A DNA stretch of 63,389 nt, the filler included, from Albugo candida (taxonomy: Eukaryota), in assembly GCA_040437565.1 (NCBI GenBank). It is 27 parts of 27 records of this genome, joined end to end, with 100 filler letters (N's around TTAATTAATTAA, not from the genome) between each part and the next. Parts side by side here need not be neighbours in the genome. Positions count along the whole stretch, not along the records: positions 31,106 to 33,362 come from JBDOQK010000326.1; 26 more parts are not named here. The stretch is one strand, 5' to 3'. The position numbers and the translations under genes are program-made. Numbering within the stretch: position 1 is the first letter of the stretch; the number at the start of each line of letters is the position of its first letter. Under the pieces are notes generated by a model that saw nothing but the letters and a program-made list of their open reading frames with translations, searched no databases and was not told the DNA's origin. Of this stretch, positions 2,498 to 53,337 are shown piece after piece.

Positions 2498-4032
2498 GCA
2501 ACAACATCATCATAATCAACAACAAAAACAAAAACAGCAACAACAACGAGCACACAAAACAGCCAAATCAATTTCATCACCAGTGAATAGGCTAAGACTA
2601 GGATGTATGAAGATCAAAACTACTCATTTATTAGAAACAGCATTTGTTGGATTTCGTGACTTTAAAAATTTACCAAAATTAGTTTTAAAGTATGATAGTA
2701 AAACAAGATGAAACTCAACCTTGGATATGATCTCCAGATTTCTTCTGTTACGTGAAGCGTATGACCATGCTGTAAAAGAAAATGATATTATAAAAGAACG
2801 TTGCTCATTATCCAAAAAAGATGTAGAATTTTTGATCTCTTTAAAAAGTCTACTTACTAATTTTTATACTATAACATTATGGTTATGCTCACAAAGGTAT
2901 TTAAAAGCTGATTGCACGAGTTTTATATGTTTATTAAAATCATTCTATAAACGTTTACAGATACACAACAATCAACCGAACAATCTCACTATTCAATGTG
3001 TTATTTGATCAATTAGACGAGTATGAGGAAGAGTATGAATTTGATGATGATAAAAAAGATCTTATATTAGCTTCTAGACTCGCACGTGAAAAACTAGCAA
3101 AATATTATGAAAAAACTGACAGGAGTCCCGTTTATGCCTGTTCAACTTTTCTTGATCCTATGATGAAGTTCAACTATTGGGCTGACGAAGGTTGGGAAGA
3201 GGAAATTATTGAAGAACAAAAACGAGTTTGTGTTCAATCGTTTAAATCGTACTTACACAGTTATTACACGAAAAACCCTTTACCACCCTCATCTTCATTT
3301 TTCACCAACAACAACCTCAACAACAACAACAACAACAACAACAGTAGCATTAATAGTAGTAGTTTTTCTATTGATGATAATAGTCAACAGGCCCAAGCAC
3401 TATCATCAACGAATGTAATGATGTCTAGAAAAAGAAGAATGTTAATGAGAGAGTCACAGGCTACAAAACGTGTAAACGTTGGCTATACCACTCAAGCATG
3501 CTTGACTGTTGAAGAGCGTGTTTTACAAAACATGGAGTTGGAACAATATGTAAAGGAGGATATATCGAACTTTTATCCTTTTGAAAGTTTACCTATTGTA
3601 GAAGAACAGGCAGCTAATGATTTACAAGAAGAAAGAAATGATGAAGAAGAAATTGAAAAAATGAAGCAACTTGGAGAACAAGGTTTTGCTGGTGATGATT
3701 CGACGTTGACTGCTTCAAAAATCGTTATCAATACCGTAAAATCTTCTTTCAACACACAATCTAGACAAATTACAACTGGATTTGAATACTCCACTAGACC
3801 CCTCAAATTTTGGAAAGAAAATGAGCACAAGTATCCCATTTTGTCAAAATTTGCATTGAAGCATCTTGGTGTCTGTGCAACAAGTGTCCCTTCTGAAAGA
3901 CTTTTTTCAACAGCAAAAAGAATAATTAATTCAAATAGATCCAACTTGAAGCCTGAAACTGCTGAAATTATTGTCATTTTAGCTTGTTGGCAAAATGAAA
4001 TTGGTTCTGATGCTATCAACGTTTTCGTATGA
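2434..4032 (+). pseudogene. hAT transposase, C-terminal half, with premature stop
   Basis: LKYDSKTR*NSTLDM has TGA at 2709-2711 in place of the conserved TRWNST Trp. GT-AG intron at 2897-2960. KLAKYY and FLDP present, plus the dimerisation domain FWKENEHKYPILSKFA...ATSVPSERLFS. Confidence 0.9.
2451..2547 (+). repeat. (CAA)n microsatellite, polyQ in the hAT reading frame
   Basis: Direct CAA run with few interruptions. Confidence 0.9.
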
Positions 4033-21748: not shown

Positions 21749-23910
21749 ATGTCCTCAGATCGAGTTTTTACTTTTATCAACGACAACAGTGATGGAAGAA
21801 GAGTAAGAAGAAGAACAACTGTCAACGATGAGGAAATTACGAATATGCCCGAGATTCCTAATCCTGTAAATGAATCCAACGAAAACAGATCTTCAGAAAC
21901 TGTTAATGTCTGTGTTTCATGTCAACAACCGGGACACTTGAGAAGTAGTAGTAGACACTGTCTTAATTATCGAGGTGCTTCTACTGATACCGTTAGTAAT
22001 GTTGAGAAAAAGAGAATAAAAATAAGTGAGGCTAATAAGAGTTTTTGTGTTTTTTATTTTTAATTTAATAAAGAGTCTTCCTATTGGAGTAAACACTTTT
22101 TTTAATGTAGCTAGAATTATTGAAGGTAGAACTTTAGCTGTAAGACATGATTCGGGACGAATGAGCAGTATCTGTACCCATTGTAATGCTTTGATGTGGT
22201 TGGATGAAAAAACAAACGCTTCAGTTACTCGCCCTGAATTTCAATTGTGCTGTGGTAAAGGGCAATATGTTATTCAATCTTTTCCAGCCACTCCACCTTT
22301 GATTTCTAACATGCTTAAAAGAAATGATGATGTGTCAAAGGAATTTCAGTTAAACATAAGAGCATACAATTCTTCTTTGTCTTTTACTTCTCTTGGTGTC
22401 AATTTAGATAGAAGTGTACAAAACAGAGTAGGAGGAGCATATACATTTCGTATTCATGGAAGTATGTACCACCGTATTGGTATGTCATTAGAGCCAAGAG
22501 AAGGTCAGTCTCCAAATTTTGCACAAATATACGTTTATGATGCTGCAAACGAATTGCAAAATAGACATGCTGTTGCTCAACATGTTGATATTAACACTCT
22601 TGCAAGTCTTCAAACCATGATGCATCGAGTTAATCCTTATGCAAGAGATTTTAAAACGATGGCGCAAATTGATAGAGAAACACCAGGAGGTATGGCTGAT
22701 ATGAGTATGGTATTTCGATCAGAAAATACACCTGATCCTAGACGGTACAATGCACCTACCACTGCAACAGAAATTGGTGTTTTAATTGTTGGAGCTGATG
22801 GTGGAAGGGACCCTTCACAATCTACCTACAGAGATATAATAATCAGATTCAACAACAGTAATAATAATCAACAGTCTACTCAATTTCAGACTATAAATGA
22901 AATTAATCAACATTATGATCCTATGCAATATGTTTTGATGTTTCCTTCAGGCCATCCAGGTTGGAACATTGAATCTAAAACAATTGACAGATCCACTAAA
23001 GTTACCATTTTGCAATTCTACCGTTTTCATTTGATGTATCGTCCTTCTCCTTCTTCTGATATAGGTATTTGCGATCTTCATTTATTCGGTGCTTTATTTC
23101 ACCAGTATGTAGTAGATATGTATGCCAAGATGGAACAGGAACGATTAAATTTTATTCGCCGTAATCAGAATACTTTGCGTTGTGAGTTGTACAATAATCT
23201 TCAAGATGCTGTTCATGCCGATGATTTTGATGCTTCTGTAACTGGTAAAAAATGGATCCTTCCTTCTTCCTTTATCGGTGGTCCACGTCATATGGCTCAG
23301 CTTTATCAAGACGCAATGTCTATTGTTCGTAGATATGGTAAACCAGATCTATTTATAACATTTACCTGTAATCCCAGCTGGCCTGAAATACAGCGTGAAT
23401 TGTTATTTGGTCAAACTTCAGGTGATCGTCCTGATCTTTGTAGTAGGATGTTTCATCTTAAACTGAAGGCTCTTTTAAATGATATCAGAAAAAAACAAAT
23501 TTTCGGTAAAGTCGTTGCAGATGTCCATTCCATTGAATTTCAAAAACGAGGATTACCGCATGCTCATATCCTTTTGATATTGGATTCTGATTCTAAAATT
23601 CGCGATACTGATATTGATTTACTTATATCTGCTGAAATCCCTAATCCACTTCCTTTGGGTAACCCTCTATACGAAACTGTTACCAAAAACATGATGCATG
23701 GTCCTTGCGGTCCTAGCTTTCCTAATTCTTCTTGCATGAAAAACGGTAACACGTGTTCTAAGGAATTTCCTAAAAGGATTAATCCTATTACTACTGTACC
23801 TCAGGAGTCTTCCGGTGGTGGTTATCCCAACTACATGCGTCGTCAAAATGAAAGAGTAGTGCATAGAAATGGTGTTCCATTAGACAACAAATGGGTGGTC
23901 CCCTACAATC
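21749..23910 (+). mobile_element. Helitron Rep/helicase, N-terminal Rep (HUH) part, 3' truncated
   Basis: Zn knuckle CVSCQQPGH and CTHCNALMW...CCGKG; FRIHG, YDPMQYVLMFP, LPSSFIGGPR; Rep motifs PDLFITFTCNPSW, EFQKRGLPHAHILL and YPNYMRR. Confidence 0.95.
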
Positions 23911-30300: not shown

Positions 30301-31105
30301 CACCTGACGGTAGAAAACCTGAGTGTTGATCAAACAATTTAGCGTAGCAACAATTTCTGTGTTGATCCCGATCGACGCAAGCAAATCAAGGGTCGCGTTG
30401 GTGATGGCTTTATTAACGCGAGCGCTGTCACGCGCGACTCTAAAACGTTATTGCATTGATAGTATTTGTTTTCCCACTAAGTTAATTAAAGCCTATAGCC
30501 TTCAACCTTCCAGAGTACGATTCCGATTATTTGGGTAGTGCAACCTTGCAAAGGCTCGCATGATGTATTTGGACAGGTACAATGTATAGAATGTACATAA
30601 TGGCTAGGTAAGGCGAATGATTACGTTACCTCAGCCCTTAATGTTTATAACTTTCTTTCCATGTTCTCAAAAAGGGTTTTTTATTGTCTTTTACTTATGG
30701 AAGATACGCATTCTATTACATAAAAAGAACACTACTACCGTGCTATGCATCCTTGTGTCTTACCTGCCTTTTCTATGTCTGCTTCCATGCTCGCAAAGTA
30801 CGGTTCCGGTGCCTCAGAAACGTTGTCATTTAGCCCACGGCGGAATAATGCAGCTACCATATAAATCATCAAGAAATTGTTCATCATAATCAAATATTCG
30901 ACGAACATTTAACACCATGAAGATTTATCCATTAGAAGCGTGTTATATCGCCATGCTTGTGGTTTCGACAGCGTATCATCCATTCGTGAGCGGTGATTAC
31001 ATGAANNNNNNNNNNNNNNNNNNNNNNNNNNNNNNNNNNNNNNNNNNNNTTAATTAATTAANNNNNNNNNNNNNNNNNNNNNNNNNNNNNNNNNNNNNNN
31101 NNNNN

Positions 31106-31815
31106 TTAGTGGTATAAGCTGAGCATAGATTGGTTAGTCTAATACTCATGGCTTCCGGGATTTCCTGATGAATTAAGGAGAGTAGAATTACCTTTCTGTC
31201 GATCTGATCATGAAACTTTTTATAGTCAAATTCATAGATGAACTTCTTGTGTAATAATTCTCCAATCGCTTTCCAAGCTGATAAGGTTCCTCTGCCTTTT
31301 CTATGACCGTGCTGATTGACATTTAGTCTTTCTTCCAGCCAATAATGCATAAACATGTTAAGCATCCATAAATAGATCCGGTTCGGAACTCCTGGGTCGT
31401 TGATGTATCTTGTTCCTCCATCCGGTTTAGGGATAGGGGTTCTCGTCACCTCAAACGACTGTGGTTCGTTCTTACAGATTCTGTCCAATTCGGTTAGCCA
31501 TTTGATAACCGTCTTCATCTCCTGGTCCTTGAACCAGTTGGGTCTTACGTTTCTCAATCCTAATAATCGAAAAGCTTTACTTCTTAAAAGTAACAAACTT
31601 GACAATTTCCAGAATTTTATTGGGTCTCCTCGCAATCTTTTCAGTCTAAACTGTTGTTTTGCCAGGTATCTTTCCAGTTTCCGATTCAGACCTTTCTCGA
31701 AAGATGGAGGTCCGTCTCGTACTACCTTCTTGATTCCGTATTGTAACAGAAATTGGTCATAGCCTAATTTATTTCCGAGAATCATTTGTCGAATGTTTGG
31801 AATATTAAATTTCAT
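31106..31815 (-). CDS. Mirror copy of the same reverse transcriptase ORF
   Basis: Exact reverse complement of 32653-33362; probably the same physical gene read on the other strand of the hairpin. Confidence 0.85.
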
Positions 31816-32652
31816 AATATAAGTAACAAAGATGCTTCTAATTCTTCTGGATTTACTAATTCGGAAGGGTGGTATGTCATGTCGGAGAAGCTATCCAGAC
31901 TGCATTCCACTTCCGCCAGTTCTCAATAGAGACTCGGTTCAATTAGGAAAGCCCTCTACATTCATGATTCACACTAAGCCCGAGGCCACCCTGAGGGCAT
32001 GAATTCAACGAACTTAATGCAACCTGTAGCCAATTGCTCGCTACAGCCGGTCCCAAGTCCGGATAAATGCAGAGGGAGTTTCAGAATTGCACTAATGCTT
32101 TTCCAATTCCGCTATATGGATCCTGGAAATTTTCACATTAGTGTTCAGGAATTGGCCCACGTGCCTTATCTTCAACCCCCCAAGGACTTCGTCCGCGGAG
32201 TAATAAGAATAAGGTACTATTTAGTCAATTCCTGAAGAAATTGCTAAATAGTACCTTATTCTTATTACTCCGCGGACGAAGTCCTTGGGGGGTTGAAGAT
32301 AAGGCACGTGGGCCAATTCCTGAACACTAATGTGAAAATTTCCAGGATCCATATAGCGGAATTGGAAAAGCATTAGTGCAATTCTGAAACTCCCTCTGCA
32401 TTTATCCGGACTTGGGACCGGCTGTAGCGAGCAATTGGCTACAGGTTGCATTAAGTTCGTTGAATTCATGCCCTCAGGGTGGCCTCGGGCTTAGTGTGAA
32501 TCATGAATGTAGAGGGCTTTCCTAATTGAACCGAGTCTCTATTGAGAACTGGCGGAAGTGGAATGCAGTCTGGATAGCTTCTCCGACATGACATACCACC
32601 CTTCCGAATTAGTAAATCCAGAAGAATTAGAAGCATCTTTGTTACTTATATT

Positions 32653-33362
32653 ATGAAATTTAATATTCCAAACATTCGACAAATGATTCTCGGAAATAAA
32701 TTAGGCTATGACCAATTTCTGTTACAATACGGAATCAAGAAGGTAGTACGAGACGGACCTCCATCTTTCGAGAAAGGTCTGAATCGGAAACTGGAAAGAT
32801 ACCTGGCAAAACAACAGTTTAGACTGAAAAGATTGCGAGGAGACCCAATAAAATTCTGGAAATTGTCAAGTTTGTTACTTTTAAGAAGTAAAGCTTTTCG
32901 ATTATTAGGATTGAGAAACGTAAGACCCAACTGGTTCAAGGACCAGGAGATGAAGACGGTTATCAAATGGCTAACCGAATTGGACAGAATCTGTAAGAAC
33001 GAACCACAGTCGTTTGAGGTGACGAGAACCCCTATCCCTAAACCGGATGGAGGAACAAGATACATCAACGACCCAGGAGTTCCGAACCGGATCTATTTAT
33101 GGATGCTTAACATGTTTATGCATTATTGGCTGGAAGAAAGACTAAATGTCAATCAGCACGGTCATAGAAAAGGCAGAGGAACCTTATCAGCTTGGAAAGC
33201 GATTGGAGAATTATTACACAAGAAGTTCATCTATGAATTTGACTATAAAAAGTTTCATGATCAGATCGACAGAAAGGTAATTCTACTCTCCTTAATTCAT
33301 CAGGAAATCCCGGAAGCCATGAGTATTAGACTAACCAATCTATGCTCAGCTTATACCACTAA
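32653..33362 (+). CDS. Reverse transcriptase, mitochondrial retroplasmid-like (N-terminal 236 aa; truncated before the QG and YADD motifs)
   Basis: RYLAKQ..RL, FWK....LL.RSKAF, PNWFKD, RTPIPKPDGGTR (RT1/2), RIYLWMLN, QHG.RKGRGTLSAW (RT2a) and IYEFDYKKF (RT3) resemble Mauriceville/pFOXC-class RTs. Confidence 0.85.
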
Positions 33363-45162: not shown

Positions 45163-47310
45163 TCAGGATTGGTAGTAGGATCATTGCTAATATCATCACA
45201 AGGTACATTTGTATTATTATTATTACCAACTTCCAATCCATTACCATTTAATAAATCTTCTTCCAAATATTCTTCTAATTCTTTATTTGTATCAATTAAA
45301 TTTTGAACTTGACTGTCGAAATCAATACTTGTTTTTTTATTTTTTCTTTCTTGTTCTTCAAAGTATCTTAGTCTCTTATTGCTGGTAAAAGGAATAGGTT
45401 TGCCGGTAGACGAGACAGAAAACGAAGAGGGTGTTCTATTAAAGTAATTTCAAAAAAAAAAAATTAGCATTCATTATAAGTCGAAATTACTCTATACTAG
45501 ATAAAAACTTACAACAAGTTTCTAGTTGATTGTTGTTGTTGTGGTGGTGGTGGTGGTGGTAGCTGTTGCTGCTGTTGTTGGCTTCTTCTCGCTTCTATTC
45601 TAAGTTTTTTTTCATATCGGCTTCTTAAAAATAACTTCCAGGCATTATAAACCACATTTTTTTGTTCTTCAATAATATGTTCCTCCCATTCTTCAATTTC
45701 CCAATTCTTCATTTTCAATTCAGGATCTAATACGGTGGCGCAACTGTATATATTACTGTAGTCTGTCTTGGCGTAATATGATGATAATTTTTTATAAGCT
45801 ACTGAGGCTGCATTTTTGAGTACTTGATTCGAACGTTCATCATCTAAATAGGCTTCAAGTTTATCAAATATTGCGTTGTACAAGCAAACCGACCTATTAA
45901 TTGTTGTATGTCTAAAAAGAACTAGCGTCAATATGAAACTTTATATGTCACATGTGAATTTCAGTTTTACCTTTGAGAGCAAAGCCAAAGAGTACCAGTA
46001 TAAAAAATTTGAAGTAAGTCACGTAAATGGGTCAAGAAAATATGTTCATCATCGCTGATCATCAAGTCAGTGGTCTTATGAGAAGGAGAAGCAAGTGCGT
46101 GGTTGTACGCTTCTTTTAGAATCAAAAACCTGTTAATCATATCAAACGTAGAGTTCCAACGCGTTTTACAATCAAATTTTAATAATAGTTTTGGAGCATC
46201 AGTACAATATAAATCACGATGTTTTACGAATCGATTATTTAAAGCAAGAACAGTCCTAAATAATTCAGAAATATTGTTGGTATACTTGAGATAATATTTT
46301 ATAATATGCCAAACTTACTTAATCTTGATACACCCTTTACGTAGTTTCTTAACTACTTTTACTTCCAAACAAGAGGCAAGTTGTTCGTTTGGTTCTTCAC
46401 CGTTACGTTCACCATCATCATCATCCAAATTAATATTATTATTGTATATATCAGCTTCCAAGTAGGCTTCAGAAAAAATACCATTCTTTATAATATCTTG
46501 ACATGCCAAGTTCAGAACGTGAGCAGTACAAGAGATAAGTTGATTTTTTGAATTGAATATGAACAAATTTCTTTCCTCTAACATACTTTGAATAAATTCA
46601 CCCATTTTGATATTATTTGAAGCATTATCAGCAGTAATTGTATGTAATAGATGAGTAATTCCATAGTCGTCAAGTACACCAATAAAAACTTCAGCTAATT
46701 TCTCTCCAGAATGGACTATGTCATTCAAATTTTCAAATCCAATAGTATATTGCTTTGGAATCCAGGTTTTTTTTTCTATGTAATGAGCTGTGATTGACAT
46801 ATAACTATCACTAGTTGGTGCAGTCCAAACATCGGTTGTAAAGCATAAGAATTCTTGAGATTGTAAAACGGATTTTACTTTTTCTTTAGCATCTGAATAA
46901 TGATTTTGAATTAGTCTCGTGATAGTAGATCTTGATGGTAATTTGATTACAGATAAGATTTTTTCGGAAGTTGAATTGCATACATAGTTTAAAAGATTTT
47001 GAAATGAGTAATTTTTCTCTACAAAATTATATGGTAACTGATTTTCAATAATAAGTTTAACAAGTAATTGATGAAAAGTTTTTTTATCAAGAGGCTGATT
47101 GGTACCAGTAAGTGTTGAAGATGATGAAGAGACAGGCGTTCGAGTGAAATAGTCTAATAGATTTTTTTTATTTCCAGATAAGCATTCTTTTACGAAATCA
47201 TGATCAAATTTAGGTTCATCCATTTCCATAAGTAATTCTTCGTTATTTGTTGCGACTATTTGTTTCTTGTATTGAGATAGTAAATCAATTATTTTTTCAT
47301 CTACAGTTAT
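45163..47310 (-). mobile_element. hAT transposase (multi-exon, truncated at both ends)
   Basis: LPYNFVE, FTTDVWT, ITADNASNN, SCTAHVLNL, FDCKTRWNST, KKLSSYY, VLDP. Shares the LWLCSQR intron position with the copy at 2434-4032. Confidence 0.92.
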
Positions 47311-47888
47311 TAAAATAAAATAAGTCAGTGATTAATCTAGCTTTGATATTAACGTGTTATTTATATATCTTACGAGANNNNNNNNNNNNNNNNNNNNNNN
47401 NNNNNNNNNNNNNNNNNNNNNTTAATTAATTAANNNNNNNNNNNNNNNNNNNNNNNNNNNNNNNNNNNNNNNNNNNNGTCTTCGTTAGTAGATGTAATCA
47501 TCTTAGATAAAATGTTCGTTTCACAAAATTGTAAGAGCCGAATTACTGGTAGAAATCATTATTAAAACTTACTAACACAAAGGTCAGTTCCCCATAAAAT
47601 CTATGTAGAATTATAATATGTATTCTTAACATAGTAATTTCACACATTATGAAAGCATTACGGCTTTACTAAATATTAGGTGCTCTCAAGGACTTCGCTG
47701 AATTTTTTTTTTACCCTTTATAGTAATATAAATTTTTTTATAAATTTCGGATAATCATTCGGTCTCTATTTATCCGTGCTGAGATTTTAGAAAATACTAA
47801 AAAAACCCCACCAGTCACAACTTATTTCTTCTTTTTCTTCTCGAAAAATATAATCAAATAAAAAGAACAATTTTACACTTAAACCAAA

Positions 47889-49790: not shown

Positions 49791-51368
49791 ATCATTTATA
49801 ACATCGATATCATCACGTTCATATTCTTGATAAAGAGCACTGATAGCTCGATGGCTGACCTTTCCGATCAGATTTGCAAATCGTAAATCTGTTGCTACCA
49901 ACACATCCACGGTATTTCTTTCTTTAAGTTCGAGAGCTCTATAATTTTGCTCGAAATCTTCCAAGTTTGCGACGAGGCAATTTATGGCAAGGTTCAATGG
50001 TTGTACAGTAGACATGCCTCTTTTCAAAATTTTATGACCACTTTCAGCTCTTTGGGAAGTTGTGCATCCGAAATGCATAATCTTCGACGTTATGTGACCT
50101 GCCCACTTTTCAACATGTTTTTCCCATTCAAATTCATAATATCGTTGGAAGCTTTTTTGTTGAACTTCACTCACAAAGTTATCACGATCGTTGAGTATAT
50201 CATAAACAGTGGCTTTCATTGTTTGATAGTCTGAGTTTGTTTGACAGCGCATTATCGACATTACAGTATTTTTAAACTCTCTAACTATTTTTCCCTCCTT
50301 CAATACTTTTGTGGTACACTTCTTATCTAAATTGTTTATCATGTGCCAAGTACACAACAACTTCTTATTTGTATCAAACTGGGCATTGAGTTGATTCATT
50401 AAAGCGGTACATTTATCGGTGACAAAAACAGTGTGATCAAGCGATCCAAACAAACTTTTTAAAGACTTCAAGAACCATTCATAAATAAACTCTTTTTCCG
50501 TTGTGACCCAAGCAAATGCTATGGGGAATGTTTTCAAAACCAATCCTCCAACATTGCTGACACCGTAAGCACATATAAATGGCATGTCCAAATTATTTGT
50601 CATATATGTAGCGTCGATAATCATTACTTCAGGGAATCTTACAAATTTTTCGATCAAGGACCTGTTCGTAAGAAAGAGTCCATCTAAAGTTTGCGAAGAG
50701 TCGGTGTGATAAAGAGTAATCAAACCCATGCTTTCAGCGTATGTCATAAGCATTGCTGCTCCATTTTCAGATTTTAAATCCAATTGTACTTTTCTTTTGT
50801 ATTTGATGTTATTAATATCATGGATCGTAAGTTTATGTACATCAGATGCAGAACTGATAGATTTTTGAATAAGCTTAACAGGAAAGTTGTGTCTGAGTCC
50901 GTCGTTTATTTTGCTGATGTCGTTAGGAGTCAATTGACTATGTCTTCCTATTTTTGTAGTAAGTAGATCGTAATGAGAAATAGCATGATTATGACAGTGT
51001 TCGTTATCTCCAACAGCTTTCGAGTAAGTAAAGCCTTCGTTGACTTTTTTAGACACTCTTATTTTATATGGACAACCGGTTTTTGAACTAGTTTTAGTAC
51101 GTTTGCGTTCCCGGGTGGACGTTTTTCTCCAGTTTCTATACTCTCTAGCTTTTGAACATTCAAGGTGTAAGATTGTGCCTTTCTTTGACGTGAGAGTTGA
51201 AAGTAAGAAGTTATTCTCAACAGCAAAAGTTTGAAGGGTCTTTCTCACTTCGTCTAGGTTGTGAATCTCCTCAATCGTAGGTAATTCGGAAAGTACTTTG
51301 TAGCACTTTAAATCGTTGGTCTCAACCTCATCGTTCGTGAAGTCTACGTCTTCTGAATTAATATTCAT
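49791..51368 (-). mobile_element. MULE/Mutator transposase with FAR1-type DNA-binding domain, 3' truncated
   Basis: ECSK...SSKTGCPY...HCHNH; DDE motifs IIDATYMTN, FVTDKCTAL, LCTWHM, TTSQRAESGH. Confidence 0.93.
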
Positions 51369-53337
51369 TATAATCTATATATATTGTGCCAAGATTAGTT
51401 TATGAAAGATTATACGCGTAATATGGAATCGTAAGTACCAAAACAAAAGTAGTAAGAGAAGAAAAGGTTTTTAATATAAATTTTTTGTGTGGCTTAAATA
51501 ATAAATACTAGTAATGATTATGTGTGCTAATGGTATCCTTGTGTTACTACATGTGTGCTAGAACCTGTGGCTTGTTCTATACATACTGTTCTTTACGTGC
51601 TGGAACAATTTAGGACTCCGAAGTGTGTGGATCGGGAGTGTTCTAGCACATAGTGGATTTTGTTCCAGCACGTAAGAGACCTGTTTTAATAAACACAGTT
51701 ACCATTTATTTTTGGGTTTGGTGGGTGGGTGTGGGTGTGGGTGTGGGTGGGTGAGTGTCGACCATATTTCTAGCAGTTGAGTGTAGGGGGGTTTGGGGGG
51801 CTTGCCCCCCAAGAGCAACTCAAGCAGTTGAACGACGACTGTATTTCTAGCAGTTGAATGGCAACCATTATTTTGAGCAGTAAATTGATCATGTAATGTA
51901 TGCAACTCGATTTCCTTTTATATTTTTTTTCACGCTTCACATTTATTTTTAATCAATAAAAAAAAAGTTACCGATTTATTTTATCTTNNNNNNNNNNNNN
52001 NNNNNNNNNNNNNNNNNNNNNNNNNNNNNNNTTAATTAATTAANNNNNNNNNNNNNNNNNNNNNNNNNNNNNNNNNNNNNNNNNNNNGCCCCTACGCTGC
52101 GCTTCGGGTTTGCTGACCTTCATTACGTAGAAGTACGCTTCGCTTTAAAATAGGCTCGCACCTGCCGTGGGCATGCCTGCGGCGCAACTATGGACGCACT
52201 CAAGTTTTATCAGAATTTATAAACAAATGTTTTATCAATATTTAAATCGTAAATTCCCATCTGATGAAATAAATGTGCGGGCATAGATTTATAATGTAGT
52301 GCACCTTGTTCTACCACTAACATCATTCAGTCTGAAAAGGAAATTTATGAAACGGGAAACCATTCAAACAAAATTTTTGAAACTGATATATATTGTTAAT
52401 ATTGGTATTTCGAAAAGATTGACGGTCTCATTTGTTCAGGTTAATTATAGTCGCTGTCGAGGAACATGACTTTAAATTTTTTTCCAAAAAAGAATCATGT
52501 ATTTTCATTGGTTTATAAGAGTCCCATACGCTATATGTGTTTCTATTACACCAGAAAAATAGTGCACTTCGTTTTTTTTTAATTGTTAATAGGAACATCT
52601 ATATTTTCTATCTTTTTTAGTTCTGTGTTATTAGCATGTTTATAGCATTTTTTAGAGCAATTTCTTTACGGGAGGTATCAAATTTTTTTTTGCTCTAAAG
52701 TTTAGTGAAACCACGGTTTACTATTTCCATATTTAGGACTGAATTTAATCATGTTTGATCGACCATTTTAGGAGTTCGAAAGAAAATAAAAATTGATTGA
52801 GAGCATCGTTTATAATATTTTGACTTTGAGGTATTTGTTCTTGTTCCTTCCTTTTATCTTTTATTTTTCTGATCTCACCTATAAAAAAAATTTAACATGA
52901 CTAACCAAAGAAGAAATTCTGCTAGACGTGTTGATTCTTGTAATCAACGTCAATTAGAAAACTTCAACTCTACAGAACATCTGCACGCAATGATGTTCGC
53001 ATCGCTCGTCAATTGAGAGAAAGTGCAGGTCCTCTTGTTGATGCAATTGATGCAACGGGTAAGGGGATCTGGAAAGTAAAAAAAAAAAAAAAAAAAACTT
53101 GAAAAAGCTACTTAATAAAAGGAAATAGGTTCTCATGTGTTGACAGAATTTTTGTTCATTTTATTGAATGACTAAGACTATGTCATTTCTCAAGGACCAA
53201 GATTGTTGGGACTGTTAAATCACCTTCCTCATGAGAGTGATGTGTTGCTACATATAACTGATTTTTGTAAGTTGAATGTTGTTTTGGTTAATCTTTTATT
53301 TTTATTCACTATTTTCTTTTTTTTTTATAAAAAAAGC

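Follow-up and report, generated by a model that had tools for sequence, protein, structure and literature searches.

The contig at positions 31106-33362 of the analysed stretch (hereafter the window; 63,389 nt, filler included, from the Albugo candida assembly GCA_040437565.1) is best read as the portion next to the hairpin of a small, fold-back Mystique-family retroelement, most likely a linear retroplasmid of the 'clothespin' form. In this form, a single self-complementary DNA strand would have a tip of 19 nt and an arm length of 2014 nt or more. Our confidence is evenly divided on the reading that the element is a hairpin-ended or fold-back retroplasmid with a twister ribozyme predicted to trim the transcript that runs round the hairpin. 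The Mystique family itself is best explained as a group of elements of ~2-2.5 kb that carry only a reverse transcriptase (RT) and are typical of Mucoromycota-type fungi.

The window consists of 27 short contigs of 2174-2333 nt, which are ordered by length and separated by spacers of the form N...TTAATTAATTAA...N. Over its entire length of 2257 nt, the contig at 31106-33362 was detected as an inverted repeat. Compared in the same register with its own reverse complement, it shows nine mismatches, all of which are located within 32225-32243. This confirms the whole-contig palindrome that had been proposed in the original prediction. The left arm (31106-32224, minus strand) and the right arm (32244-33362, plus strand) have 1119 nt each, are 100% complementary to each other and enclose an asymmetric apex of 19 nt (TCAATTCCTGAAGAAATTG; 32225-32243), in which nine positions are not self-complementary and which is predicted to fold into a DNA hairpin tip with a small loop. 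None of the 26 remaining contigs of the window is palindromic (1551-1753 mismatches each to their own reverse complement). A scan of the whole visible contig revealed neither tandem repeats nor a tRNA-like element. Open reading frames of 78-82 amino acids span the apex and overlap the ribozyme described below.

The abundance of the fold-back was estimated from independent k=31 contigs of one sequencing run (X1), which was the only run found to contain the element and is probably the source sample; no RNA run with the element was found among the sequencing runs listed. In this run, the arm is represented by a contig of 2014 nt with a depth of 26.6, which ends exactly at 32244 and reaches 895 nt past position 33362, so that the arm measures at least 2014 nt. 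The apex is represented by a unitig of 79 nt (32195-32273) with a depth of 11.7. Since canonical k-mers count both arms, the depth of the arm contig corresponds to ~13.3 per arm, which places the apex on ~0.88 of the arm copies. The resulting arm to apex ratio of ~2:1 is as expected with one apex per nearly every arm pair and argues against a rare chimera. A collapsed short hairpin is excluded, because the mean arm depth would then approach the depth of the apex, which was not observed. In the contigs of this single run, essentially all molecules fold back at one exact junction upstream of the RT open reading frame. Furthermore, no contig of the run continued into unlike sequence and no branch was detected on the arm, in a search that is blind to branches having just 30 nt in common with the arm end. 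The new hairpin retroplasmid of the original prediction, which was to be doubted if the fold-back proved rare, if the arm ran into ordinary DNA or if the RT grouped with those of group II introns, is supported in part by these data: the fold-back is stoichiometric (11.7 versus 26.6), the arm is unbranched over at least 2014 nt, and the RT lies outside the bacterial group II RTs sampled (see below).

The most unusual feature of the element is a twister ribozyme, which is missing from the original prediction. The match to the twister-P1 family (RF03160) at 32011-32080 on the plus strand covers the full length of the model (positions 1-68) with 73.3 bits and therefore exceeds the curated gathering score of 67.2 (E 2.7e-16). 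As the arms mirror each other, the same full-length match above the gathering score is present on the minus strand at 32388-32457, where it is located, via the apex, upstream of the left-arm RT in sense orientation. These two copies are the only Rfam matches across the window. The MFE fold reproduces P1, P2 and P4 of the twister as well as the CCGG stem, and at two positions given in upper case in the Rfam consensus the sequence differs, namely G to A after P2 and C to U in 'AAGCCCGG'. Based on the 'UA' at model positions 5-6 and on the U-A cleavage site of twister ribozymes given in PMC8501958, the scissile step is predicted at 32015/32016 on the plus strand (32453/32452 on the minus strand for the mirror copy). 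The copy at 32011-32080 is antisense to the RT of the left arm and lies, through the apex, sense-upstream of the RT of the right arm, with 573 nt between its 3' end and the ATG at 32653. This orientation is meaningful only if a transcript passes through the apex, and self-cleavage of such a transcript is predicted from the sequence. In the literature searched, two reviews aside, we found no report in which a twister is joined with a retroplasmid; in one of these reviews (PMC6765202), the word 'retroplasmid' occurs only in the title of a reference on VS. Likewise, no twister ribozyme report was found for Rhizopus in the literature searched, and the titles and abstracts of the matches listed did not contain a retroplasmid of such kind from Rhizopus or the Mucorales.

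Between the apex and the start codon of the RT lies a leader of 409 nt (32244-32652, plus strand), which contains the complement of the twister. The RT reading frame itself comprises 236 N-terminal codons and is open at the end of the contig (32653-33362, plus strand; mirror copy at 31106-31815, minus strand). It starts with the ATG at 32653, upstream of which an in-frame stop codon is present. As had been described beforehand, the reading frame begins 409 nt from the apex and is directed outward. The RT is the only long reading frame of the arm, and no other RT fragments were found in the window outside this contig. The visible part covers an N-terminal extension and the start of the RVT_1 domain up to the region of the first catalytic-Asp motif. 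On the fragment alone the RVT_1 match is weak (E 1.4e-3, under the Pfam cut-off), while the comparison with full-length relatives places the RT assignment of the original prediction on firm ground: the fragment shares 59% identity with a 543-aa RVT_1 protein (E 2.7e-92). This nearest relative is encoded on a contig of 2021 nt, and the arm of at least 2014 nt leaves, after subtraction of the 409-nt leader, 535 codons, which comes near to the 543 aa of this relative and amounts to roughly a complete RT gene. The 236 codons contain six TGG, no TGA and no stop codons, which agrees with the earlier observation that all tryptophan codons are TGG. Standard-code mitochondria occur in Mucoromycota and plants. 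A standard-code reading frame is compatible with such a mitochondrion and equally with the cytosol or the nucleus, and is not in itself a mitochondrial sign.

The closest named relative is the RT of Mystique from Phycomyces blakesleeanus, reportedly a mitochondrial genetic element according to the title of Idnurm 2018, with 55% identity in the RT part common to both (E 8.1e-34). The two proteins cluster together, the N-terminal extension included. In a quick tree of 72 rows, to which the window RT contributes only 236 aa and in which the group II-type RTs are bacterial, the RT falls into a clade of nine rows with Mystique (95 SH-aLRT; clade supports 99, 95 and 98). A split with a support of 100 SH-aLRT separates all 48 rows of the family from the bacterial group II-type RTs (24 rows), which speaks against a grouping with group II intron RTs as far as bacterial ones are concerned. 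The clade with Mystique also includes unnamed proteins, Rhizopus ones among them, on stand-alone contigs of 2.0-2.5 kb. Among 28 matches to the relative P0002, a contig size is given for 26; 24 of these contigs have 1521-3061 nt and two have 7773 nt. A cluster of 622-aa proteins from Rhizopus recurs in many assemblies, the encoding contigs having 2409-2506 nt, and the relatives' contigs of ~2-2.5 kb encode RTs of 520-650 aa. In five full-length relatives, RVT_1 alone scored above the Pfam cut-off (P0051 showed in addition a weak, sub-threshold EF-hand_12 match), and maturase, HNH or other endonuclease domains were absent. At 50% identity and E<=1e-30, the RT family comprises 430 clusters. No pFOXC-named protein was present among the 28 relatives or among the 120 matches listed of 331. 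A search of 185,579 prokaryote genomes revealed no family member but only group II-type RTs, the 80 best loci having 24-38% identity in the RT core only, and no RT relative was found on viral contigs. P0002 retrieved only generic RVT_1 clusters from the ESM Atlas. The metagenome scan yielded one true relative, L001, with the other loci (L002-L080) matching the RT core only (30-62 bits), and a large fold-back was found in none of the 80 loci. In L001, the reading frame stops 3 nt from the contig end and is preceded by 251 nt. This contig contains no palindrome, no informative tandem repeats and, apart from a chance CRISPR-repeat match, no Rfam match at E<=1; the leader at 32244-32652 shares one short block of similarity with it.

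The other contigs of the window had been thought to look mucoralean or oomycete, which our analysis does not support. Reading frames of hAT, Helitron and MULE transposases were found on them, and the nearest Atlas clusters of the Helitron reading frame are mostly from plants, although the latter is a lead only. Based on these transposases and clusters, the fungal-type element may have been carried along in a sample of plant origin.

The observed depth ratio and contig breaks, as predicted for a hairpin, would be predicted identically by a head-to-head inverted dimer in ordinary duplex DNA, with two RT units pointing away from a unique centre of 19 bp. Such a dimer could exist freely, as a linear or circular molecule, or be integrated into nuclear or mitochondrial DNA as an inverted repeat, and transcripts running across the centre would still be processed by the twister. 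Integrated copies of the Mystique family do exist, as shown by two sources: in Endogone, the adjacent and identical relatives RUS23434.1 and RUS23435.1 reside on a contig of 96,466 nt, which is compatible with a paired arrangement, and the Mystique cluster includes a YP_ accession of the organelle RefSeq type, which is carried by the Mystique reading frame. Moreover, where the arm contig ends near the end of the reading frame, the sequence could divide into two flanks instead of ending physically. We nevertheless consider this arrangement rather unlikely, as the close relatives reside overwhelmingly on stand-alone contigs with tight lengths in many assemblies, as no contig of run X1 was seen to pass into unlike sequence, and as long perfect palindromes are generally unstable in chromosomes. 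Slightly less probable in our view is a palindrome made in vitro or in silico from a native linear or circular monomer, the end of which folded back on itself and was filled in while the DNA was amplified or the library prepared, for example as an early multiple-displacement chimera that became dominant. The twister would then merely be antisense and upstream of the RT. Consistent with such an origin, the evidence consists of contigs from a single, probably the source, sample with no library type on record, the centre has short self-complementary stretches such as can initiate snap-back, and L001 is not palindromic. Typical chimeras are, on the other hand, rare and variable, whereas the apex is present at ~0.88 of the per-arm depth with one exact junction, and the 26 other contigs of the same window show no palindrome. 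In addition, a monomer would have no evident use for a twister located upstream of the RT in antisense orientation, while the fold-back puts the ribozyme exactly at the expected site of 5' processing.

That the contig is part of a group II intron or of another integrated retrotransposon, and hence not of plasmid type, is highly improbable. The nearest solved structures are indeed group II intron RTs, both for the family profile (E 8.2e-27) and for the fragment (E 2e-5). The Rfam search of the contig revealed, however, no group II intron RNA family at E<=1, and the lack of maturase, HNH and other endonuclease domains in the five relatives, the separation from the bacterial group II-type RTs in the tree and the lack of family members in prokaryote genomes point in the same direction. 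A group II intron was consequently rejected based on the missing intron RNA and maturase domain, as was a non-LTR (LINE) retrotransposon, since none of the five full-length relatives has an endonuclease domain.

For the hairpin-ended retroplasmid, of which the palindrome, the apex to arm depth of ~1:2, the placement of the RT and the match and orientation of the twister are observed, we infer a replication cycle. Transcription would begin within one arm toward the tip, round the tip and exit through the RT gene, giving an RNA with the order antisense leader, twister, apex, twister complement and RT reading frame. The twister would fold and cut between U32015 and A32016 before its complement, ~300 nt downstream, is made. 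The product would serve as RT mRNA and as template, its 5' end being set by the cut and its first ~437 nt being self-complementary (209-nt stem, 19-nt loop and 209-nt stem). Starting at the 3' end of the RNA, the RT would copy it into a cDNA, the 3' end of which would be self-complementary, snap back and prime the second strand. Second-strand synthesis could rebuild the whole fold-back DNA and would also restore the few nucleotides that the cut had removed on its upstream side. More tentatively, and with less confidence than in the reading given at the outset, we propose that the element is a self-priming, ribozyme-processed hairpin retroplasmid and belongs to a large group of RT-only replicons of ~2-2.5 kb that is essentially undescribed and whose named members come from Phycomyces, Rhizopus and Endogone.

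To our knowledge, essentially one system of hairpin-ended retroplasmids is known, pFOXC of Fusarium. A fold-back RT element that bears a twister would tie the regeneration of the hairpin in each cycle to a natural role of canonical eukaryotic twisters, and the cycle offers a testable model of replication in which a ribozyme-defined 5' end is followed by snap-back priming of the second strand. If this is true, canonical twister ribozymes gain a defined natural job. According to PMC8501958, a function of canonical eukaryotic twisters 'has yet to be shown', the variants described there aside. The family of Mystique, which has been described as a peculiar mitochondrial element from a single fungus, is very large and appears mostly on free-standing contigs of ~2-2.5 kb, and the proteins on the Rhizopus assembly contigs of this family are annotated merely as hypothetical.

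Among known systems, Mystique is the closest named relative in sequence, belongs to the same clade and likewise contains RVT_1 only; the text of PMC12737674 cites it among transfers from retroplasmids to mtDNA. According to the same source, the retroplasmids of ascomycetes require the mitochondrial code, whereas the RT reading frame described here is open in the standard code. The RTs of group II introns provide the nearest structures and the nearest prokaryotic sequences, with the identity in the RT core given above, but the element differs from them in the lack of an intron RNA, in relatives without maturase or endonuclease domain, in its separate clade and in a family-specific N-terminal extension. 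In architecture, the element resembles the 'clothespin' retroplasmids pFOXC1, pFOXC2 and pFOXC3 from the mitochondria of Fusarium oxysporum (~1.9 kb; PMC3035579). Both are small elements with a single RT reading frame (~530 aa in pFOXC; an arm of at least 2.0 kb here), and in both the hairpin or fold-back is located at the end upstream of the reading frame, which reads outward to the other end. In pFOXC, this open end is described to carry telomere-like terminal repeats of 3-5 bp and a 5'-linked protein. The description in PMC3035579 mentions no ribozyme, whereas a twister is present here.

A small ribozyme upstream of the RT reading frame that sets the 5' end of the RNA is also found in the twister T-variants of Perere-3, which process its 5' end, and in the HDV-like ribozymes of R2 (PMC8501958). 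These are chromosomal, endonuclease-bearing LINEs that use target-primed reverse transcription, whereas the relatives of the element described here have no endonuclease domain, and its ribozyme is a canonical twister-P1 that lies upstream only via the fold-back. In the VS system, multimeric transcripts are processed into circles. As in the Varkud and VS plasmids of Neurospora mitochondria, the RNA of a self-cleaving ribozyme would be coupled to replication by a retroplasmid RT, the VS ribozyme RNA replicating as a retroplasmid satellite according to a reference title in PMC6765202. VS belongs to another ribozyme class and resides on a separate satellite plasmid, whereas here a twister is located in cis within the RT element itself and is embedded in a hairpin geometry.

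The region singled out in the original prediction coincides exactly with one contig (31106-33362, 2257 nt) of the 27, which measure 2174-2333 nt, are arranged in descending length and are separated by artificial spacers (N/TTAATTAATTAA); open reading frames that extend into these spacers (31054..31815, for instance) were created by the concatenation. Set against its reverse complement, the contig showed only nine mismatches, all inside 32225-32243. It is composed of two perfect inverted arms of 1119 nt each, flanking an asymmetric 19-nt centre (TCAATTCCTGAAGAAATTG), which confirms the proposed whole-contig palindrome. In the same test the remaining 26 contigs were not palindromic (1551-1753 mismatches each). 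A reverse transcriptase (RT) ORF begins with an ATG at 32653 on the plus strand and is open at the contig end after its N-terminal 236 codons, while a second, mirrored copy occupies the minus strand of the left arm. Its outward reading direction, its distance of 409 nt from the inner arm end and the exclusive use of TGG for tryptophan (six TGG, no TGA) were all as predicted.

The sequence is present in one public sequencing run only, probably the source sample, represented by k=31 contigs and not by reads. Alignment of these contigs to one arm and the apex yielded two records: a 79-nt unitig spanning 32195-32273, i.e. the 19-nt centre with 30 nt on either side (word depth 11.7), and a 2014-nt arm contig (depth 26.6) that stops exactly at 32244 and extends 895 nt past the end of the target contig. 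Since canonical k-mers count both arms, one apex per arm pair predicts an arm:apex ratio of 2:1; the ratio of 2.27:1 observed between these contigs corresponds to approximately 0.88 apices per arm copy. Two artefactual sources of the palindrome are disfavoured, as a rare chimeric read would leave the apex far under half of the arm depth and an assembler that had turned back at the tip of a short hairpin of natural origin would give a mean depth of the 2-kb arm close to that of the apex. The assumption that the fold-back is not a rare chimera therefore holds at contig level, although a fold-back made in vitro, for instance early in amplification, would be compatible with the observed depths; as the apex number per arm copy opposes its formation by a rare chimera, we consider an in vitro origin unlikely. 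The depth ratio would also be identical for a closed hairpin, a duplex head-to-head dimer and an integrated inverted repeat, and we regard the dimer or integrated repeat as somewhat unlikely.

The 236-aa fragment by itself matched RVT_1 weakly (E 1.4e-3), and its nearest solved structures are group II intron and retron-type RTs, which would be in line with a fragment of a group II intron. A search for longer relatives in a collection of 5.8 billion proteins returned five matches, the best being a 543-aa RVT_1 protein (59% identity across the entire fragment, E 2.7e-92) and the only named one 'Mystique' of Phycomyces blakesleeanus (55% identity, 48% of the query). According to the alignment, full-length relatives contain the YADD motif, and Pfam scans of five of these proteins gave RVT_1 as the only domain above the cut-off; maturase, HNH and any other endonuclease domains were lacking. 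Of 1.84 billion representatives, a six-sequence profile matched 3107 with E<=1e-3; tightening the threshold to E<=1e-10 and E<=1e-30 left 994 and 430, respectively. We inferred a quick IQ-TREE phylogeny with 72 rows, comprising the window fragment (236 residues only), 17 Mystique-like proteins, 30 broader relatives and 24 bacterial group II-type RTs. For the bacterial set, the 71 ORFs matching the profile were cut to the first 60 distinct loci, from which the 24 were drawn at random. In this tree, which is without pFOXC, Mauriceville and mitochondrial group II RTs, the window RT paired with the family protein P0002 (99 SH-aLRT) and fell into successive clades of nine rows with Mystique (95), 15 rows (98) and 21 rows including an Endogone protein (99). 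All 48 family rows were split from the 24 bacterial RTs (100 SH-aLRT), which, together with the missing maturase and HNH domains, makes a group II intron fragment highly improbable. The palindrome, the roughly 2:1 depth and an RT outside the sampled bacterial group II RTs favour the predicted hairpin or fold-back retroplasmid, a reading for which we see the chances as evenly balanced.

The relatives are predominantly encoded on short contigs. Among the 28 matches of P0002, 24 of the 26 with recorded size sit on contigs of 1521-3061 nt, and the other two share one 7773-nt contig. In Rhizopus delemar and R. arrhizus, many independent assemblies contain 622-aa RTs on separate contigs of 2409-2506 nt (e.g. 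KAG1581467.1, 2463 nt), annotated as hypothetical protein only. These contigs of ~2.45 kb look like an undescribed retroplasmid-like element; among the literature matches listed for Rhizopus or Mucorales retroplasmids, no such element was described. In two further clusters, the proteins measure 546 aa and 610-612 aa, and the contigs encoding them 2017-2526 nt and 2413-2431 nt, respectively. In Endogone sp. FLAS-F59071, the adjacent loci BC937DRAFT_88901 and _88902 on a 96,466-nt contig encode an identical 521-aa RT (RUS23434.1 and RUS23435.1), and this pair may be integrated, head-to-head or in tandem. One accession in the Mystique cluster is of the YP_ type, which we take to indicate an organelle genome record. 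In the available text of PMC12737674, the Mystique paper is cited among examples of retroplasmid transfer to mitochondrial genomes. Based on the size-clustered separate contigs and the Endogone and Mystique cluster records, the family seems to consist of separate ~2-2.5 kb replicons, or of repeats with sharp boundaries, in Mucoromycota-type fungi, with occasional integrated copies. No members were found in IMG/VR or among 185,579 prokaryote genomes. A 204-aa Helobdella robusta protein (XP_009028323.1) shares a 90%-identity cluster with Phycomyces Mystique, and a Methylomirabilota MAG carries an annotated member on an 1800-nt contig (HYT45361.1); both entries look like contamination or mis-binning and not like true hosts. 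A metagenome contig with a group II-type RT (L029) starts with a perfect self-complementary stretch of 104 nt (1-104), probably an assembly end artefact.

Rfam detected a full-length twister-P1 ribozyme at 32011-32080 on the plus strand (73.3 bits, gathering score 67.2, E 2.7e-16) and its mirror copy at 32388-32457 on the minus strand, with no other match in the whole 63-kb window. The twister helices were recovered in the MFE fold, and the sequence deviates from the consensus at two upper-case positions. Self-cleavage is predicted at U-A 32015/32016 (+), based on the alignment and the site stated in the available text of PMC8501958. The twister runs antisense to the RT of its own arm and faces the apex; read through the apex, it is sense and upstream of the RT of the opposite arm, with 573 nt between its 3' end and the ATG. 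The sole relative whose DNA was compared, a 2141-nt metagenome contig (L001; 43% identity, 251-nt leader, ORF stop 3 nt from the contig end), showed neither a ribozyme match nor a palindrome. Its leader (1-251) and that of the window element share a short block, TGAATT ... CCTCGGGCTT, which in the window element is located at 32461-32497, immediately on the RT side of the twister complement.

Elsewhere in the window, ORFs of transposase type were identified, with the following domains: hAT dimerisation (2938-4029, +), Helitron_like_N (22026-23909, +; E 5.4e-61), DUF659 (46318-47331, -; under the cut-off) and MULE with ZSWIM RNaseH-like (49792-51374, -). The nearest ESM Atlas clusters of the Helitron ORF are mostly Streptophyta, which is a lead only. 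The expectation of mucoralean or oomycete contigs was therefore unsupported, and the bulk assembly may represent a TE-rich plant genome instead of a fungus or oomycete; the fungal-type element would then be a passenger that came from an organelle or a fungus associated with the plant.

For a hairpin or fold-back retroplasmid, we propose a cycle in which transcription would begin inside one arm, round the tip and exit via the RT gene. The twister would cut this transcript co-transcriptionally, which would explain its position and orientation inside the inverted repeat. The product could serve as RT mRNA and template, its first ~437 nt forming a 209-bp stem with a 19-nt loop. Reverse transcription from the RNA 3' end would yield cDNA with a stem-loop at its 3' end, which could snap back, prime the second strand and rebuild the full clothespin.

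The VS ribozyme is a satellite of the Varkud retroplasmid, which we count as a parallel to the proposed ribozyme-RT cycle. The literature searched contained no paper on twister and Rhizopus together, and nothing outside two reviews on twister and retroplasmids, one review naming retroplasmids, in its available text, only in the title of a VS reference. The 5'-processing ribozymes of Perere-3 and R2 (PMC8501958, available text) parallel the proposed twister trimming. The excerpted text of PMC3035579 describes pFOXC clothespin plasmids of ~1.9 kb with one hairpin end and terminal repeats plus a 5' protein at the opposite end, and an RT that can use snapped-back primers; they parallel the proposed fold-back cycle. 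Retroplasmids of this shape are thus already known, and what would be new here is a hairpin or fold-back retroplasmid with a twister in cis.
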